Assembly (NCBI GenBank): GCA_031396695.1 | Contig: JANNLG010000171.1 | Coordinates: forward strand, 6,053-70,052 | DNA length: 64,000 bases | Direction: 5' to 3' | Source: Deltaproteobacteria bacterium | GTDB taxonomy: Bacteria; Myxococcota_A; UBA9160; SZUA-336 | Shown: positions 3,475 to 52,070 of the stretch, piece after piece | Position numbering within the stretch: the stretch's first letter is position 1 | How the letters are laid out: the number at the start of each line of letters is the position of its first letter | The notes under the pieces: model-generated | The model's database searches: none | Told to the model about the DNA's origin: nothing | Seen by the model: only the letters and a program-made list of their open reading frames with translations | Translations under genes and position numbers: made by a program

Positions 3475-4425
3475 ATGGCCAAACCCTTCCGCTTCGCGGT
3501 GCAGGTCTCGACGCTCCCCGCCGACGGCTGGATCGAGCGCGTGCGCTCGTACGAGCGACTCGGCTTCTCCACGGTCTTCTGCCCCGATCACTTCGGGCCG
3601 CAGTGGGATCCGACTGCGCTGCTCGCGGCGGCCGCCGCGGTCACGACACGACTCAATGTCGGGTCGCTGGTGTACGACGTCGACTACCGCCACCCCGTGA
3701 TCCACGCCAAGGGCGCCGCGACGATCCAGCTGCTCTCCGGCGGGCGGCACGAGTTCGGCATCGGCGCGGGTTGGATGCAGACCGACTACGACGAGGCGGG
3801 CATGCCTTACGACCGCCCAGGCCTGCGCATCGAGCGGCTCGACGAGGCGCTGCAGATCATCAAGAGCATGTGGGAGAACGAACGCACCACGTTCTCGGGC
3901 AAGCACTACAAGATCACCAACATCGCGAAGGCCGCCGAGCTGCCGGCCGGCGCGCGGCCCAAGATCCTGATCGGCGGTGGAGGACCGCGCGTGTTGCGGC
4001 TCGCGGGCCGGCACGCCGACATCGTCGGCATCAATCCGAGCCTGCCCGAGGGCAAGATCACGCGAGACAGTGCCGCCGATCTCGCGCCCGAGCGGCTCGA
4101 CGAGAAGCTGCGCCACGTGCGCGCGGGCGCGGAGGCCGCGGGCCGACGTTTCGACGAGATCGAGCTGAACTCGCTGACCTTCGTGGTGGCGATCACGGAT
4201 GATGCCTCGGGCCTGCGCGCGGGCCTGGCCGCGAACAGCGGAATGTCGGTCGAGCAGGTCGCGAACTGCCCGATCTTCCTGACCGGCTCCGCGGCGGAGA
4301 TCCGCGACGGGCTCGAGAAGCGGCGCGAGCGCTACGGGCTCTCGTACATCGTGATCCAGGGCCGCGATCCGGCCATGGTCGAGAAGTTCGCCGAGCTGAT
4401 CGTGGCGCCGCTGTCCGGCAAGTGA
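3475..4425 (+). CDS. LLM-class (luciferase-like) F420-dependent oxidoreductase
   Basis: ATG at 3475 (MAKPFRFAVQV). Conserved luciferase-like monooxygenase (LLM) TIM-barrel signature (GFSTVFCPDHF, EFGIGAGW). The ORF track's N-terminal extension is R-rich junk. Confidence 0.75.
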   Translation: MAKPFRFAVQVSTLPADGWIERVRSYERLGFSTVFCPDHFGPQWDPTALLAAAAAVTTRLNVGSLVYDVDYRHPVIHAKGAATIQLLSGGRHEFGIGAGWMQTDYDEAGMPYDRPGLRIERLDEALQIIKSMWENERTTFSGKHYKITNIAKAAELPAGARPKILIGGGGPRVLRLAGRHADIVGINPSLPEGKITRDSAADLAPERLDEKLRHVRAGAEAAGRRFDEIELNSLTFVVAITDDASGLRAGLAANSGMSVEQVANCPIFLTGSAAEIRDGLEKRRERYGLSYIVIQGRDPAMVEKFAELIVAPLSGK

Positions 4426-4473: not shown

Positions 4474-7400
4474 GTGCGCGACACCTCCGATAACTTCGTG
4501 GACATGAGCGCCACGCTGGGGACGGACCCGCCGCTCTGGGAGCGCTACACCCGAACGCACGGCCGCGTGCACCTGACGGGTCTGCAAGCGCTGCTGCGCA
4601 TGACGCTCGACCAGCTGCGCAGCGACGCGCGCGCAGGGCTGCGCACCGGCGCGTTCTTCTCCGGCTATCCGGGTTCTCCGCTCGCGGGGCTGGACGGAAT
4701 GCTGCGCAGCCTGGCGCCGCTGCTCGCGCGCTCGGACGTGCGGCTCGCGCCGGGTCTGAACGAAGAGCTCGCGGCCAGCGCGGTGGCGGGCACGCAGCTC
4801 GTCGAGACCTTCCCGCACGCCCGCTACAACGGCGTGCTCGGGGTCTGGTTCGGCAAGGCGCCCGGTCTCGATCGCGCGATCGACGCGCTGCGCCACGCCA
4901 ATTTCGTGGGCACCGGACGGCAGGGCGGTGCGCTGGCGGTCGTGGGCGACGATCCGTTCTGCAAGAGCTCGTCGCTGCCGAGCCACAGCGAGCACGCCTT
5001 CGCGCACGCCTACATTCCGTTGTTCGCGCCGGCCGACCCGGGCGACGTGCTGCGCCTCGGACGGCTGGCGTTCGCGCTCTCGCGCTACACCGGATTGTGG
5101 AGCGGACTGCGCATGGTGGCCGACGTGGCCGACTCGGGCCGGATCGTCACGCTCGCCGACGCTGAGCCCGCGCTCGTGCTGCCGGAGTTCGTGAATCCGG
5201 CCGGCCGGCCGGCTCGGCGCATCGACACGAATCTGCTGCCGCCGAACGTGCTGCGCATCGAGCAGGATCTGGTCTTCGGCAGACTCGAAGCCGTGCACCG
5301 CTTCGCGCGCGCGAACGGCTTGAATCCGATCACGTCGAAGCACGCGCGCGATCGCGTGGGCCTCGTCGCTTCGGGCTCGCTCTACCGCGAGCTCGAGAGC
5401 GCGCTCGCGCTGCTCGGCCTCGACGAGCCCGAGCGCGAGCGACTCGGCGTGCGGCTGCTCAAGCTCGACCTGGTCTGGCCGCTCGAGACCGAGCGCATGC
5501 GCGAGTTCGCATCCGGACTCGAGGCGATCGTGGTGGTGGACTCGCGCCGTGCCTGGCTCGAGGAGCAGGTGCGCGCGGCGTTGTACGAGGGCGGGTCGCG
5601 CGCGCGCGTGCTCGGCCAGCACGACGAGCGCGGCGCGGCCTGGCTCGCGCGCCGCCACGAGCTCACCGGCGGTACGCTCGCGCAGGATCTCGCGCCCTGG
5701 CTGGGCGAGAAGCTCGGCGAGCCGAAGCTGGTTTCTCGCCTCGCGCCGCTCGAAGCCGCGCTCGCGCGCGCGTCCCACGCGGCCGAACCGTCGCGCGCGC
5801 CGCACTTCTGCAGCGGCTGTCCGCACTCGTCGTCGACCAAGCTGCCCGAGGGCTCGCTCGCCGGCGGCGGCATCGGCTGTCACACCATGGCGCTGCTCAT
5901 GCCCGAGCGCGCAGTGCGGCTGCTCGGCGCGATGGGTTCGGAGGGTGCGCACTGGATCGGTCTCGCGCCCTACACCGAGACGCGACACCTGTTCCAGAAC
6001 CTGGGCGACGGCACCTACTTCCACTCCGGCCGGCTGGCGGTTCGCGCCTGCGTCGAGGCCGGTGCGACGATCACCTTCAAGCTGCTCTGGAACGGAGTCG
6101 TCGCGATGACCGGCGGCCAGCACGCCGTGGGCGCCAAGCCGCTCGCGGCGCTGGTGCGGGATCTGCTGGCCGACGGGGTGCTCTGCGTGGTGGCGATGAG
6201 CGACGACCGCGAGGTCGCCGCGCTCGAAACCTACGAGCCGCGTCTTCGGGTGGTGGACCGGAACGGCTGGGACGGCGCCATGCGCGAGCTGCGCGAGCAG
6301 AGTGGCGTCAGCGTCATGATCTGGGACGAGCTGTGCGCGAACGAGAAGCAGCGGCTCGAACGCCGCGGCGTGCTCGCTCGGCCGAGCGCGCGCGTGGTGA
6401 TCAACGAAGACGTGTGCGAGGGCTGCGGCGACTGCGGCGTCAAGTCTTCGTGCGTGTCGCTGCGGCCGGTCGAGACCGCGCTCGGCCGCAAGACGCGCGT
6501 GCACGCGGGCTCGTGCAGCGACGATCGCGCCTGCCTCGACGGGGACTGCCCGGCGTTCCTCTCGGTCGAGGGTGCGACGGCCGCAGCGCTGCCCTTCGAG
6601 TCCCTGCTGACGGGGCCGCTGCCCGAGCCGCCCGCGCCGATCTGGGACGGCGATCGCTACGAGCTGCAGCTGGTCGGCATCGGCAGCACGGGCGTGGTCA
6701 CGATCGACGCGCTGCTGGTGCGCGCCGCCGAGCACGACGGCTTGTACGCGATGCACCTCGACCAGACCGGCCTCGCGCAGCGCGGCGGCAAGGTCGTGTC
6801 GCACTGCGTGCTCGCGCGCACCGAACTGACGGGCAGCCCGCGCATCGAGCCGGGCCGCGCGGACGTGCTGCTCGCCTTCGATCCGCTCGGCTCCTCGGAT
6901 CGCGACGCACTGCGCGCGCTCGACCCGGGCCGCACGCGCGCGGTGGTGCACGAGCTGTACGTGCCGACCGGCGCCGACGTGGGCGCGCCCGGCTTCCAGC
7001 CGCCCGACCTCTCCTTGCTGATCGAGCCGCTGCGCGAAGCCACGCGCTCGCTCGAGCGCGTTCCCGCGGAGCTGCTCGCGGAAGTCGCGCTCGGCCAGTC
7101 GCTGTCGGCGAATCTGGTGCTGCTCGGCTTCGCCTGGCAGCGCGGACTCGTGCCGGTCTCGCGACTCGCGCTCGAACGCGCGGTGCGAGAGAACGGTGTC
7201 GCGGTCGAGGCCAACCTGCGCGCGATCGCGCTCGGCCGCGCGGCCGCGGTCGACGCGGAGCTGGTCGCGAAGCTCTTGCACGACGCGACTCCGCCGGCGA
7301 TCGGCGACGAGCCGGCGCTCGATCGCGCCGCGCGCGCGCTCGGTCCGGCCTGGAGCGCGGTGCACGAAGCGCTCGGCCGCTTCCAGCACGCGAAGGACTC

Positions 7401-46746: not shown

Positions 46747-48687
<1,941 letters not shown>

Positions 48688-48709
48688 CCACGAGCTGCGA
48701 GTATACGAC

Positions 48710-49813
48710 TCAGGCCGCCGCGGGCGTCTCCGGTAGCGGACCGACGTAGCGCGAGCCGGGCCGGATGATGCGCGAGCTCTGGCGCTGCTCGTCGATGTGC
48801 GCGAGCCAGCCCGCCACGCGCGCGACCGCGAAGGTCGGCGAGAACAGCTCCTGCGGCAGACCGATCGCGTCGAGCAGCACGGCCGTGTAGAACTCGACGT
48901 TCGCGGCCATGCGGCGCTCGGGGCGGCGCTCGCCGAGCGACGCGACGGCGACGCGCTCGACCGCGCGCGCGAGATCGAGCCGATCGCTGCGCAGGCCCGT
49001 CTCGCGCAGGCGCTCGACGGCGCGCTCGAGCACTGCCGCCCGCGGATCGCGCACGCGGTACACGCGGTGGCCCATGCCCATGATGCGCCGGCCCGAAGCC
49101 AGCTCGCCGGTGATCCAGCTCGAGGCGTTCTCGGGCGTGCCGATCGCGTCGAGCATCGCGAGCACCGGCCCGGGCGCGCCGCCGTGGCGCGGCCCCTTCA
49201 GCGCGCCGAGTGCAGCCACCACGGCCGACACCGTGTCGGAGTCGGTCGAAGCGACCACGCGCGCGGTGAACGTGGATGCGTTCATGCCGTGATCGGCGGC
49301 GGTGACCAGGTACGCGTCGAGCGCGCGGCTGCGCGCCGGATCGCTGCCGTGCGCGCTCGCCATGCGCAGGTAGTCGGCGGCGTGACCGAGCGCGGGATCG
49401 GGTGCGATCGGCGCCGAGCCGCGCTGTTTGCGCGCCCACGCCGCCGCGAAGACCGCGACCGAAGCCGTGAGCTCGGCACGCAGCTCGCACTCCGGAATCT
49501 CGCTCGCGCGCAGCTGCGCGAGCGCCCCGCGCACGGCCTCCATGCCGTCGGGCGCATCGAGCGCGCGGCCGAGCGAGCGCAGGCGCGCGAACGCGCGAAC
49601 GCGTGCTCGGCCCAACTCCTCACGCACGTCCTCGTGCGCAATCGGACCGGGCAGCTCGCCGCTCCAGAGCAGCGCGCAGGCCGCCTCGAAATCGGCTCGC
49701 TGCGCGAGCTGCTCCACGTCGTGCCCGCGCACCACCAGGCGGCCGCGCTCGCCGTCGACGTCGGAAAGGCAGGTCTCCGCCACCACCACGCCCTCGAGTC
49801 CATCCATCTGCAT
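48710..49813 (-). CDS. Citrate synthase family protein (archaeal-type small citrate synthase)
   Basis: ATG at 49813 (MQMDGLEG). Catalytic motifs ADHGMNASTFTARVVAST and GMGHRVYRVRDPR. Confidence 0.8.
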   Translation of the reverse strand: MQMDGLEGVVVAETCLSDVDGERGRLVVRGHDVEQLAQRADFEAACALLWSGELPGPIAHEDVREELGRARVRAFARLRSLGRALDAPDGMEAVRGALAQLRASEIPECELRAELTASVAVFAAAWARKQRGSAPIAPDPALGHAADYLRMASAHGSDPARSRALDAYLVTAADHGMNASTFTARVVASTDSDTVSAVVAALGALKGPRHGGAPGPVLAMLDAIGTPENASSWITGELASGRRIMGMGHRVYRVRDPRAAVLERAVERLRETGLRSDRLDLARAVERVAVASLGERRPERRMAANVEFYTAVLLDAIGLPQELFSPTFAVARVAGWLAHIDEQRQSSRIIRPGSRYVGPLPETPAAA

Positions 49814-49855
49814 CGCACTTCTCCTTGGACCTCTACCTTGCCGCTGATCCATTAC

Positions 49856-49881
49856 TTGATCAACGTTGATCGATCGATCAA
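49856..49881. promoter_or_regulatory. Palindromic operator-like element
   Basis: TTGATCAA-CG-TTGATCGATCGATCAA contains an 8-bp palindrome plus a 16-bp perfect palindrome. It lies in an AT-rich island between the two divergent citrate-synthase-family genes. Confidence 0.45.
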
Positions 49882-49891
49882 GATACGAGCC

Positions 49892-51133
49892 GTGAAGACG
49901 CGAACCGACGCAGCGCTCTGCGCGCGCGAGGCGGCCGAATTCCTGGGCGTGAAGCTCGCGACGCTCTACGCCTACGCGAGCCGCGGCCGCTTGAAGAGTG
50001 TGTCCGGGACGCGCGGCCGCGCGCGGCGCTACGCGCGCGCCGATCTCGAGGCACTGCGCGCGCGCAGCGCCGGACCCGCCGCGGGCGCGCTGCGCTTCGG
50101 CGAGCCGGTGCTCGAGACGCGCATCACCGACATGACTCCGCTCGGGCCGGTCTACCGCGACCGGCTCGCGAGCGAGCTCGCGAGCGCACGCGCTCCCTTC
50201 CCGTCGGTCGCGGAGCTGCTTTGGACCGGCGCCCTGCCCGCGCGCGCGCCGAGCTGGCCCGCCGGCGCGACGATCTGGCCGGCGCGCGAGCTCGCGAAGC
50301 TCGTGCCGCGCGGCAGCCCACCGCTCGGCGCGCTCGCGATCGCGCTGCCGGTGCTCGCGGCGAACGATGCCTCGCGCTTCGACGCGCGACCCGAGGCCGT
50401 GCTCGCGCGCGCGCGCGGCTTGCTGCCGCAGCTCGCGGCCTCGTACGCGCTCGCGCTCGATCCACGCCGGCTCGCACCCGCGCTCGAGGCCGGCGACCCG
50501 GCGCGCGCGCTCGCGATCGCGCTCGGCGCGCCGACCACGAAGCCCGCGCTCGAGCTCCTGAACGTCGCACTCGTGCTGCTCGCCGATCACGAGCTGAACT
50601 CGTCCACGTTCGCGGCGCGCGTGGCGGCCTCGACCGGCGCCGACCTGTACGCGTGTCTCGGCGCCGCGGTCGCCGCGCTCAGCGGACCGCTGCACGGCGG
50701 CGCGAGCGAGCAGGTCGAGATCCTCGCTCGCGAAGCTGCGAACGCCGCCGGCGCGGCCAGCGCCGTGCGCGATCGCATGCGCCGCGGCGAGCGCATTCCC
50801 GGATTCGGTCACTCGCTCTATCCGGATGGCGATCCGCGCGTGCCGCCGCTGCTCGAGGCCGCAAGACGGCTTGCCCCACGCGCGCCGCGCGTGAAGACGA
50901 TCGCGGCGATCCTCCACGCGATGGACGAGGCCGGCCGGCCCAAGCCCAACGTCGACGTGGCGCTCGCCTGCGCCTGCGCTGCGCTCGATCTGCCCCAAGG
51001 CCAGGGCCCGGCGATCTTCGCGATCGGCCGCGCGGCGGGCTGGGTTGCCCACATCCTGGAGCAGTACGAGGCCGGCTTCGTGCTGCGACCGCGCGCCCGT
51101 TGGGCGGGCCCCGCTGGTATGCTGCGCGCGTGA
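49892..51133 (+). CDS. Citrate synthase-family protein with N-terminal excisionase/MerR-type helix-turn-helix domain
   Basis: GTG at 49892. HTH segment (LCAREAAEFLGVKLATLYAYASRGRL). CS-like body (LADHELNSSTFAARVAAST, GFGHSLYPDGDPR). Confidence 0.65.
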   Translation: MKTRTDAALCAREAAEFLGVKLATLYAYASRGRLKSVSGTRGRARRYARADLEALRARSAGPAAGALRFGEPVLETRITDMTPLGPVYRDRLASELASARAPFPSVAELLWTGALPARAPSWPAGATIWPARELAKLVPRGSPPLGALAIALPVLAANDASRFDARPEAVLARARGLLPQLAASYALALDPRRLAPALEAGDPARALAIALGAPTTKPALELLNVALVLLADHELNSSTFAARVAASTGADLYACLGAAVAALSGPLHGGASEQVEILAREAANAAGAASAVRDRMRRGERIPGFGHSLYPDGDPRVPPLLEAARRLAPRAPRVKTIAAILHAMDEAGRPKPNVDVALACACAALDLPQGQGPAIFAIGRAAGWVAHILEQYEAGFVLRPRARWAGPAGMLRA

Positions 51134-51245
51134 GCGGCAAGCCCGAGGTCGATGAGCGGATCGGTCCGTCAGTGGTTCGAATGCGGTGCGGCGAGCTCGG
51201 ATCGAAAACCCGCGGCCTTTTGCCGTGACTACCCCGGAGGCGTGA

Positions 51246-52070
51246 ATGTACGAGCAGATCCTCTACTCGGTCGAAGACCCCGTCGCGCTGATCACGCTGA
51301 ATCGGCCGGAGCGACTGAACGCCTGGACCGATCGCATGGGCGACGAGCTGCGCCACGCGATCGCGCGCGCGGAGGCCGACAAGAGCGTGGTCGGCATCGT
51401 GCTCACCGGGGCGGGCCGCGGCTTCTGCGCGGGTGCGGACCTGAAGGGACTGCAGGCGATCACCGTTGGCGAGCGCGAGCGCGGCGGCACCGCTTCGGGA
51501 CTCGCCGCCGACCCCGGCGACACCGAAATGGGTGAGTCGTTCCGCAAGCACTACTCGTACCTGATGTCGGTGCGCAAACCGATCATTGCCGCGATCAACG
51601 GACCGTGCGCCGGCATGGCGATGCCGATCGCGCTGTTCTGCGATCTGCGCTTCGCGGCCGAGAGCGCGACCTTCACGACCGCCTTCGTGCGCCGCGGCCT
51701 GATCGCGGAGTGGGGCCTGGCCTGGACGCTGCCGCGGCTGGTCGGCTCCGCGCACGCGCTCGACCTGTTGCTCTCGGGCCGCAAGATCGATGCGCGCGAA
51801 GCCGAGCGGATCGGGCTCGTGAATCGCGTGCTCTCCGACGAAAAGCTGGTCGCCCACTGCGTCGACTACGTGCGCGAGCTGGCGGCGAACGCCTCGCCGG
51901 CCTCGATGATGGTGATGAAGCGGCAGGTCTACCAGCAGCTCACGAGTGAACTCGGCCCGGCGTGCGACGAGGCCGTGAAGCTGATGGTGGAAAGCTTCTC
52001 GCGACCCGACTTCAAGGAGGGCGTGCAGTCCTTCCTGGAACGGCGACCGCCGAAGTTCCCGCGCGTCTAG
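51246..52070 (+). CDS. Enoyl-CoA hydratase/isomerase family protein
   Basis: Crotonase-fold motifs (FCAGADL, AAINGPCAGMA). SD GGAGG 6 nt upstream of the ATG. Confidence 0.85.
   Translation: MYEQILYSVEDPVALITLNRPERLNAWTDRMGDELRHAIARAEADKSVVGIVLTGAGRGFCAGADLKGLQAITVGERERGGTASGLAADPGDTEMGESFRKHYSYLMSVRKPIIAAINGPCAGMAMPIALFCDLRFAAESATFTTAFVRRGLIAEWGLAWTLPRLVGSAHALDLLLSGRKIDAREAERIGLVNRVLSDEKLVAHCVDYVRELAANASPASMMVMKRQVYQQLTSELGPACDEAVKLMVESFSRPDFKEGVQSFLERRPPKFPRV

Follow-up and report, generated by a model that had tools for sequence, protein, structure and literature searches.

A 64-kb stretch of DNA from a deltaproteobacterium (contig JANNLG010000171.1; the whole stretch is called the window below) carries at 48710..51133 two divergently transcribed genes related to citrate synthase. 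The plus-strand gene encodes a protein in which a helix-turn-helix (HTH) domain is fused to a complete citrate synthase (CS) fold, and a DNA element made of overlapping palindromes lies immediately ahead of it. The HTH-CS fusion is probably a dimeric one-component regulator, in which the CS fold senses oxaloacetate, citrate or acyl-coenzyme A (acyl-CoA) and which controls its own gene together with those of neighboring acyl-CoA-condensing enzymes. An earlier note on this DNA had pointed out both genes, the fused HTH and the element TTGATCAA-CG-TTGATCGATCGATCAA at 49856..49881, all of which are present, and had suggested an operator and an autoregulatory or metabolite-sensing factor derived from citrate synthase. 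This suggestion is the one best supported by the comparative evidence, namely the conservation of the element, a reverse search with the element alone, and the invariance of one helix of the HTH and of the arginines that bind the CS ligand.

The features of the locus are as follows.

48710..51133, both strands: the locus, two divergent genes and a 78-bp spacer (read from the sequence)
49892..51133, plus strand: HTH-CS fusion gene, 413 residues, GTG start, predicted one-component regulator (Pfam; N-termini of homologs)
49925..50062, plus strand: winged HTH (HTH_17, MerR/excisionase-like), residues 12-57 (Pfam; AlphaFold2 model)
50075..50113, plus strand: linker, residues 62-74, predicted to be flexible (predicted local distance difference test score, pLDDT, below 50 in the AlphaFold2 model)
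50099..51094, plus strand: full CS-fold domain, residues 70-401, predicted sensor and dimerization module (Pfam, E=2.7e-68; Foldseek)
50693-95, 50810-12 and 50954-56, plus strand: codons of the catalytic residues H268, H307 and D355 (by motif)
49814..49891, no strand: divergent intergenic control region, AT-rich relative to its surroundings (GC computation)
49856..49881, no strand: predicted operator TTGATCAA-CG-TTGATCGATCGATCAA (palindromes confirmed; conserved in relatives)
49856-63, no strand: 8-bp dyad TTGATCAA (palindrome scan)
49858-71, no strand: 14-bp dyad GATCAACGTTGATC (palindrome scan)
49866-81, no strand: 16-bp dyad TTGATCGATCGATCAA (palindrome scan)
49860..49881, no strand: conserved core TCAA-N2-TTGAT-N6-ATCAA (half-sites 90-100% conserved in relatives)
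48710..49813, minus strand: csA, CitA-type (PRK12350) citrate synthase, 367 residues, ATG start, predicted regulated target (Pfam, NCBIfam)
49821..49826, minus strand: Shine-Dalgarno sequence AAGGAG of csA, 7 nt 5' of its ATG at 49811-49813 (read from the sequence)

The fusion protein and its relatives

The fusion protein matches two Pfam families above their cutoffs of 27 bits. HTH_17 (PF12728) scores 38.8 bits at residues 12-57, and Citrate_synt (PF00285) scores 231.1 bits and is matched over positions 4-357 of its 357-position profile. The peptide LCAREAAEFLGVKLATLYAYASRGRL is found in the protein as first noted. The His/Asp motifs that the CS body had been said to retain are present as H268, H307 and D355, which we take, from the motifs, to be the equivalents of H274, H320 and D375 of the pig enzyme. 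By the same kind of mapping, R316, R380 and R401 presumably correspond to the oxaloacetate-binding Arg329, Arg401 and Arg421' of the pig enzyme. The window protein has thus kept the whole catalytic triad and all of the substrate arginines.

The GTG at 49892 is backed as the start codon by the N-termini of homologs (MK..D..), rather than the upstream TTG codons called for relatives P0001 and P0002. Gene callers often begin the open reading frame (ORF) of the fusion at such an upstream TTG (window 49838..49891; P0001, P0002, P0078, P0107, P0108), and ORFs started in this way translate the operator as L-I-N-x-D-R-S-I-K (LINIDRSIKI or LINLDS...). Fusion proteins that are listed in databases with 425-431 or more residues are probably over-extended.

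The AlphaFold2 (AF2) model of the monomer, with a pLDDT of 83 and a predicted template-modeling score (pTM) of 0.78, consists of a winged HTH, a 13-residue disordered linker and the CS body. The HTH has helices at residues 11-18, 22-30 and 49-58 and a wing at residues 36-47. A Foldseek search with the full model found small citrate synthases and PrpC as the closest folds, with TM-scores of 0.58-0.80 depending on the normalization, and found no solved HTH-CS fusion. The same enzymes are nearest to the CS domain in sequence. Among solved proteins, the sequence of the N-terminal domain comes nearest to the MerR family, with weak scores (E=0.085-1.8); it resembles TipAN, SoxR, the mycobacteriophage Xis gp37 (4J2N) and BldC (6AMA) weakly. 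Because of this weak similarity the domain is placed in the MerR/excisionase superfamily, as an HTH of that superfamily that lacks the MerR coiled coil. Strict membership in the MerR family was rejected, as the Pfam MerR models score below their cutoffs (PF00376, 20.9 against 28.2 bits; PF13411, 21.5 against 21.6 bits) and the linker at residues 62-74 runs straight into the CS body. An identity as an excisionase was rejected as well: the match to TIGR01764 'excise' is 21 bits with a cutoff of 28.8, the protein has 413 residues, and no integrase neighbor is conserved in the 80 loci compared below.

Residue conservation was counted over 81 fusion sequences. The second helix of the HTH, TLYAYASRG in the window and TLYAYxSRG in the family, is nearly invariant and is taken from its position for the recognition helix; T24, Y26, Y28, S30, R31, G32 and, in the wing region, Y47 are kept in 78-81 of the sequences. 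The binding arginines are equally constant (R316 in 81, R380 in 80 and R401 in 81), and the junction residues P72, Y88 and R89 are conserved. The catalytic residues are present in somewhat fewer sequences: H268 in 76, H307 in 74 and D355 in 75, with Glu in five more. The presumed recognition helix and the arginines that bind oxaloacetate or citrate are therefore the most invariant parts of the protein. Judging from these counts, constraint is stricter on the residues that bind the ligand than on the catalytic residues, some of which have been lost in a few relatives (5-7 of 81), and this pattern fits a sensor with a fixed DNA target.

The same residues could belong to a trigger enzyme of the PutA kind, that is, a functional isozyme of citrate synthase or 2-methylcitrate synthase that uses its HTH solely for feedback on its own promoter, with csA as an independent paralog. 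The triad and the substrate arginines, kept in the window protein and in 74-81 of the 81 relatives, suit such an enzyme, as does a domain that spans the full Pfam CS model. However, the domain scores far below every NCBIfam threshold for citrate synthase or PrpC. It is under all 21 NCBIfam cutoffs for citrate synthases and citryl-CoA lyases, the best match being TIGR01800 with 190.4 bits against a cutoff of 421.3, and it is the catalytic His or Asp that is lost in some relatives while the binding arginines are invariant. A trigger enzyme with self-control only is thus unlikely, although it overlaps with the regulator favored here, since catalysis and regulation are not mutually exclusive.

The fusion has many relatives. 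A homolog search of 5.8 billion proteins gave 5181 matches, and the best 120 of them are nearly all single proteins of about 400-430 residues with both PF12728 and PF00285, from Myxococcota and Burkholderiales. When one genome per species was scanned, at least 587 fusion relatives turned up. On the proteobacterial side they occur in Burkholderiales, in Xanthomonadales (Stenotrophomonas, Pseudoxanthomonas, Luteimonas, Dyella) and in Alphaproteobacteria (Mesorhizobium, Stappia), and among the Myxococcota in Sorangium, Myxococcus and Nannocystis. Others are found in Chloroflexota, Acidobacteriota, Actinomycetota, Gemmatimonadota, Latescibacterota, Melainabacteria, Verrucomicrobiota and Kapaibacteria. 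A 75-residue query comprising the HTH and the linker retrieved 1057 representatives at the 50% identity level. Because the full-length matches have about 390-450 residues, this HTH subtype is essentially confined to the fusion. Three proteins, P0125 (623 residues), P0132 (417 residues) and P0245 (729 residues), match the HTH query in 4-7 stretches; they are apparently tandem HTH_17 arrays, which are unusual and have no relation to the fusion.

The median identity of the CS domains is 39% between fusions and 29% between fusions and the adjacent CitA-type paralogs. Since the fusion CS domains are more alike to each other than to the paralogs, the fusion is old and has not been re-invented repeatedly. 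The architecture is real, ancient and widespread. In the databases the relatives are named 'citrate synthase', 'citrate synthase family protein' or 'helix-turn-helix domain-containing protein', and full-text literature searches returned no description of an HTH-citrate synthase regulator.

The spread of the family also decides whether the fusion could be an artefact, namely a frameshift or misassembly, which the earlier note had named as a refutation, of a small excisionase gene and a CS gene, or the remnant of a mobile element. HTH_17 is typical of excisionases and there is the weak match to the 'excise' model (21 bits). But this score is below the cutoff, the linker and junction residues (P72, Y88, R89) are conserved, no conserved integrase or repeat boundaries lie nearby, and the same single ORF of about 400-430 residues recurs in hundreds of independent genomes and metagenomes. 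An artefact was rejected on the strength of the homolog, species-genome and HTH-plus-linker searches, and its probability is negligible.

The DNA element between the genes

The two genes are separated by the AT-rich island that had been noticed earlier. The spacer is 78 bp long (49814..49891) and has a GC content of 50%, falling to 41% in its core, compared with 71% for the 64-kb window, and it includes one of the two lowest-GC 60-mers of the window. Two other short low-GC islands, at about 15684 and 31367 (60-mers of 45-48% GC), resemble the csA/fusion spacer in composition. The predicted operator consists of three half-sites, which form overlapping perfect dyads of 8, 14 and 16 bp, and it ends 10 nt before the GTG of the fusion gene. 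The window contains nine perfect 16-bp palindromes and one of 20 bp; the others are GC-rich and that in 49856..49881 is AT-rich. As a first-order Markov model predicts 9.7, a 16-bp palindrome by itself is within chance. The statistical weight lies in the conservation and in the three-half-site pattern TCAA-N2-TTGAT-N6-ATCAA, which has one exact match in 64 kb where 0.01 is expected.

The conservation was assessed in 80-82 loci, each comprising the fusion gene and 6 kb on either side. The strict pattern TTGAT-N6-ATCAA occurs near the start of the fusion gene in 38 of 80 loci and only eight times elsewhere in 914 kb, several of these being ahead of csA. A search that tolerated one mismatch and spacers of 5-7 bp recovered a site at 64 of the 81 loci, where the background is 0.033 per 490 bp. 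The resulting logo reads TCAA, 2 bp, TTGAT(T), 6 bp, (A)ATCAA, with each half-site 90-100% conserved. The spacer of the dyad is 6 bp in 45 sites, including that of the window, and 7 bp in 17; the 7-bp spacer belongs to the Gamma- and Alphaproteobacteria. The element is found in intergenic regions of distant phyla, for example as TTGATCAACGTTGATTCGACAATCAAC in Polyangia, as GTCAATATTGATTTAGAAATCAATATA in Chloroflexota and as TTGATCAATCTTGATTCAACCAATCAA, which lies between prpB and the fusion gene in Stenotrophomonas.

The position of the element is also conserved. In 49 of 62 loci it ends 55-113 nt 5' of the codon for the conserved Thr24, which is roughly 0-30 nt ahead of the start codon. It accompanies the fusion across at least 10 phyla, whatever the neighboring gene, and is seen with partners other than csA: prpB (L063), TctC (L040, L056) and an HMGL-like gene (L079). 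Such a position right at the start codon of the fusion itself, seen in most loci, is what would be expected of a self-controlling trigger enzyme. However, the site stays ahead of csA when the two genes are separated: where an extra gene lies between csA and the fusion (L032, L041, L043, L078), and where csA is upstream on the same strand (L059), a site is found 60-200 bp upstream of csA. One locus from Polyangia (L025) contains between csA and the fusion gene, at 5647..5760, five copies of TTGAT-N6-ATCAA with exact 21-bp phasing. The array suggests that several dimers bind cooperatively along the same face of the DNA helix.

The element was also used on its own. Metagenome contigs were searched with the 18-base pattern TTGATCAANNTTGATNNNNNNATCAA, and contigs with a GC content of at least 0.58 were considered high-GC. 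In 40 of the 120 exact matches returned, an HTH-CS gene follows 7-125 bp downstream on the same strand. Among high-GC contigs the proportion is 39 of 47. Four of the eight remaining high-GC matches are directly upstream of a TctC gene (L136, L173, L187, L197), and one has an HTH-CS gene next door. In L040, L187 and L197 the TctC gene is followed by a gene for a thiamine-diphosphate enzyme of about 600 residues, which has no known function and resembles PRK08327 below the cutoff. TctC and this enzyme may form a second target operon in Burkholderiales. Of the other high-GC matches, one is 153 bp from the end of its contig, one is a GATCAAGC tandem repeat and one is within a pyrG-like coding sequence. 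The 72 low-GC matches have no citrate synthase nearby, and several that were inspected appear to be within coding sequences. Among the metagenome matches as a whole, the pattern in L140 lies in a stretch encoding LIKLDPYIN that looks like CTP synthase, and the coding sequence on the opposite strand in L191 is presumably uvrA. Such coding-sequence matches probably explain some of the matches without a CS gene. On this evidence motif and fusion gene predict each other equally well, with TctC as a further predicted target. The marking of TctC genes by the motif alone points to a regulon that extends beyond self-control and argues once more against a trigger enzyme of the restricted kind.

The element might instead be a promoter, or the binding site of another regulator of the FNR/CRP type, and have nothing to do with the fusion protein. 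The half-sites TTGAT and ATCAA are the same as those of the FNR box. In 48 of 63 sites the 5' portion of the element (TTGATC or TTGTCA) is similar to a -35 hexamer, and in 43 of 63 CAAyAT shares A2 and T6 with a -10 hexamer; the putative spacers measure 16-18 bp. The embedded promoter is suggestive and is kept as a weak indication. The FNR/CRP box was rejected as an identity because the spacing of its consensus, TTGAT-N4-ATCAA, is not found; the spacers are of 6 or 7 bp. Promoter hexamers leave the conserved dyad across the spacer unexplained, and no putative promoter was called by the consensus scan. Furthermore, the element and the fusion co-occur in at least 10 phyla that differ in their sigma factors and global regulators, and the blind search with the motif retrieves the fusion gene. 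The HTH of the fusion is the only DNA-binding domain that is always found with the element, and its presumed recognition helix varies as little as the half-sites do. A promoter or foreign site is accordingly quite improbable.

Other signals at the locus are few. No Shine-Dalgarno sequence comparable to that of csA was seen ahead of the GTG of the fusion gene when the sequence was inspected, and a terminator scan of 49700-50000 and 48600-51400 found none. Rfam, tRNA and tandem-repeat scans of the window gave nothing relevant to the locus. ARAGORN called an 85-nt tRNA-Ala(CGC) at 4281..4365 on the minus strand of the window; the Rfam tRNA model has no match at or above the gathering score anywhere in the window, and the call is doubtful.

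Partner genes and a possible mechanism

The minus-strand gene had been described as a canonical small citrate synthase. It is indeed a full citrate synthase, matching Pfam Citrate_synt over its full length (E=1.9e-106), but not quite a canonical one, being a member of the CitA subfamily with a Glu at the position of the catalytic Asp. Its score with NCBIfam NF009005 (PRK12350, 'citrate synthase') is 392.9 bits, above the cutoff of 332, which places csA among the CitA-type enzymes. The protein has His175, His210, His249 and Glu307, the last in the motif NVEFY where most citrate synthases have NVDFY. The closest solved structure is 2C6X, the citrate synthase I (CitA) of B. subtilis (E=1e-78), which likewise has NVEFY. 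The Glu and all of the active-site His and Arg residues are invariant in 52 of 52 partner orthologs that adjoin fusion genes, and the csA-type partners group as one clade. The Glu looks like a trait of the subfamily and not like decay.

The earlier note had proposed to compare the catalytic residues of both paralogs and the genomic context of HTH-CS orthologs. The first comparison shows a triad kept in 74-76 of 81 fusions and a Glu kept in all 52 csA-type partners. In the second, a CitA-type paralog with 43-69% identity to csA adjoins the fusion in 52 of 80 loci, nearly always divergently, and the element is found in 64 of 81. When the ORFs of the 81 loci were clustered all against all, no further neighbor proved to be widely conserved, nor did any integrase or repeat boundaries.

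The tight and widespread pairing of the two paralogs could also mean that csA and the fusion form a hetero-oligomeric citrate synthase, in which the HTH has a non-transcriptional role such as localization or protein contact. The active sites of citrate synthases span the dimer interface, and the catalytic position is occupied by Glu in csA and by Asp in the fusion. However, a CitA-type paralog is missing next to the fusion at 28 of 80 loci, where its place is taken by prpB, malate synthase, an HMGL-like gene, TctC or a methyltransferase. Furthermore, B. subtilis CitA, with the same Glu, was crystallized by itself (2C6X), and the conserved DNA element finds no explanation. A hetero-oligomer is therefore very improbable.

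At the loci without csA the partners vary. In Stenotrophomonas (L063) the fusion is divergent from prpB-prpC-acnD, each gene of which scores above its NCBIfam equivalog cutoff, and ten other Xanthomonadales loci have a PrpC-like CS at the same relative position. The divergent partner is malate synthase A in two Melainabacteria loci, a homocitrate/isopropylmalate-synthase-like (HMGL-like) gene in one Chthoniobacterales and one Streptosporangiales locus, and the tricarboxylate receptor TctC in two Burkholderiales loci (L040, L056). Three genomes of the Myxococcus type (L006, L009, L017; Myxococcus, Citreicoccus) have an S-adenosylmethionine-dependent methyltransferase (Methyltransf_11/25) as partner, with the standard element either missing or degenerate in all three. 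An acyl-CoA synthetase gene comes after csA in an Ideonella genome. The theme shared by the partners is that of enzymes condensing an acyl-CoA with an oxo acid, together with tricarboxylate handling. A pair of the 2-methylcitrate or citramalate type under local control, which the earlier note had raised as an alternative, is thus partly right in spirit, given prpB-prpC-acnD in Xanthomonadales and homocitrate-synthase-like and malate synthase genes elsewhere; the pair in the window itself is made up of a CitA-type enzyme and the fusion.

In the locus of the ortholog with 79% identity (L081, 9239..10795), a gene for a carboxyltransferase of 518 residues (Carboxyl_trans; mmdA-like below the cutoff) overlaps the stop codon of the fusion gene and is followed by an enoyl-CoA hydratase gene. 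The fusion there is translationally coupled to these genes in the manner of a member of a metabolic operon, which speaks for a trigger enzyme. In the window there is a 112-bp gap (51134..51245) where L081 has the carboxyltransferase gene, which is missing or lost.

Two hallmarks of a one-component regulator or trigger enzyme are found in this system: one polypeptide joins a DNA-binding domain to a sensor or enzyme domain, and a cis-element is associated with the gene. In the regulator favored here, a complete CS fold would stand in for the usual small effector domain, and dimerization would occur through the CS body, as in all citrate synthases. The CS dimer would set the two N-terminal winged helices on TTGAT-N6-ATCAA, the half-site centers of which are 11 bp, or about one helical turn, apart. 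The third half-site, 2 bp upstream (TCAA-N2-TTGAT), might recruit a further dimer or double as a -35 region; a second dimer would fit the 21-bp phased array of L025. Autoregulation and control of the divergent gene would be expected because the element abuts the start codon of the regulator within a shared control region. As signal a compound that occupies the CS active site is predicted, either oxaloacetate, citrate or 2-methylcitrate, or acetyl- or propionyl-CoA, or both kinds. The range of partner genes is the reason for considering an acyl-CoA and/or a di- or tricarboxylate. Closure of the domains of citrate synthase on binding of oxaloacetate is established enzymology. In the fusion, the substrate-induced rotation from the open to the closed form might be relayed via the short linker and alter how the two HTH domains are spaced or oriented. 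The analysis establishes the domain architecture, the conservation of residues, of the gene pairing and of the cis-element, and the association of gene and motif in either direction; DNA binding by the fusion, its binding as a dimer and the nature of the ligand are what we infer from these comparisons.

Several observations weigh against this interpretation. The near-complete catalytic triad suits an active enzyme as well as a sensor, and the AF2 model is that of a monomer, which puts the geometry of the HTH domains in a dimer outside its reach. No recognizable site is present in 17 of 81 loci, among them those of Myxococcus, Polaromonas and some Melainabacteria, and the partner identities at the loci without csA come from few loci each. 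A scan for consensus sigma-70 promoters in 49700-50000 and 48600-51400 called none, and the embedded promoter passes the consensus scan in 0 of 63 sites. The literature searches returned no experiment or paper that ties the fusion protein to DNA binding.

A broader picture can be drawn, about which we are evenly divided. The fusions may represent a large and unstudied family of transcription factors spanning phyla, with an intact and possibly still catalytic CS fold as the sensor and TCAA-N2-TTGAT-N6/7-ATCAA as a near-universal operator. The regulon would comprise CitA-type citrate synthase, the methylcitrate cycle, malate synthase, homocitrate-synthase-like enzymes and uptake by TctC, and domain closure would be converted into a change of DNA binding.

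Relation to known regulators and significance

Conceptually the fusion belongs with PutA, GabR/MocR and BirA, whereas its fold, its operator and its inferred regulon are new. Like PutA and other trigger enzymes, it combines an enzyme fold with catalytic residues and an N-terminal DNA-binding domain in one chain, and has a predicted operator between divergent genes, with autoregulation expected. PutA has a ribbon-helix-helix domain together with flavoenzyme and dehydrogenase domains, and switches by membrane association, whereas the fusion carries a MerR/Xis-like winged HTH on a CS fold. MocR and GabR likewise reuse a whole dimerizing enzyme fold as the sensor module of a one-component regulator. 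They differ in having an HTH of the GntR type and an aminotransferase fold; GabR has lost normal catalysis, whereas the HTH-CS family mostly keeps its catalytic triad.

The MerR family (TipA, SoxR, Mta) shares with the fusion the winged-HTH layout and dyad half-sites about one turn apart in the promoter region, although the similarity in sequence is weak. MerR proteins dimerize through a long coiled-coil helix, in the place of which the fusion has a 13-residue linker into the CS body, and their promoters have spacers of 19-20 bp compared to putative spacers of 16-18 bp at the fusion element. The excisionases and BldC are related through HTH_17, which the fusion matches above the cutoff, and through the weak similarity to Xis gp37 (4J2N) and BldC (6AMA). 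Unlike the fusion, which has no mobile-element context, they are small, free-standing proteins with a role in the directionality of recombination or in head-to-tail binding to direct repeats.

Jin and Sonenshein are said to have reported in 1994 that citA of B. subtilis is under a dedicated, divergently transcribed regulator. The citA-citR divergon is similar to the locus in the window in that csA, among solved structures, is closest to CitA, including the Glu, but CitR is of the LysR type and has no citrate-synthase fold. B. subtilis CitA has been described as a secondary citrate synthase isozyme (PMC4039378). The PrpR protein of X. citri is a repressor of the methylcitrate operon and binds a palindrome upstream of prpB (PMC12153269). 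The HTH-CS genes in Stenotrophomonas and ten other Xanthomonadales loci are divergent from prpB-prpC-acnD, where PrpR would be expected. However, PrpR is of the sigma-54 type in Salmonella, whereas the fusion has only the HTH_17/MerR-type HTH and Citrate_synt, with no AAA+/sigma-54 activator domain. X. citri PrpR was rejected as being the same protein, as its palindrome GTTGCAA-N2-TTGCAAC is absent from the 82 loci and the published alignment pairs it with the sigma-54 PrpR of Salmonella (PMC12153269). CcpC and CcpE are citrate-responsive LysR regulators that control the tricarboxylic acid (TCA) cycle (PMC11315280, PMC13288900); they may share the citrate signal with the fusion, and have the LysR fold instead. 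The citrate synthase CitA of Caulobacter regulates independently of its catalysis (PMC7083601), but differs from the fusion in lacking a DNA-binding domain.

The practical consequences of the finding concern annotation and tools. Relatives of the fusion are now named 'citrate synthase', and their ORF calls often run into the operator, so that both could be improved. A defined operator of 22-26 bp would suit biosensors for TCA-cycle intermediates or acyl-CoAs.

To our knowledge, the regulators known to respond to citrate or acyl-CoA pools are few and restricted to certain lineages: CcpC, CcpE and CitR of the LysR type, the sigma-54 PrpR and GntR types. If the fusion acts as proposed, central carbon metabolism would have in it a regulator that senses oxaloacetate, citrate or acyl-CoA directly. 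The secondary CitA-type isozyme would gain a role as a locally regulated overflow enzyme, and in Stenotrophomonas and its relatives the fusion would be a candidate for the missing local regulator of the prp operon of Xanthomonadales. The open-to-closed transition of citrate synthase is among the best described domain motions of any enzyme, and the family would show how it can be rewired into the allostery of DNA binding. A regulator built from citrate synthase would give bacteria a direct readout of the acetyl-CoA/oxaloacetate node at the entry of the TCA cycle.

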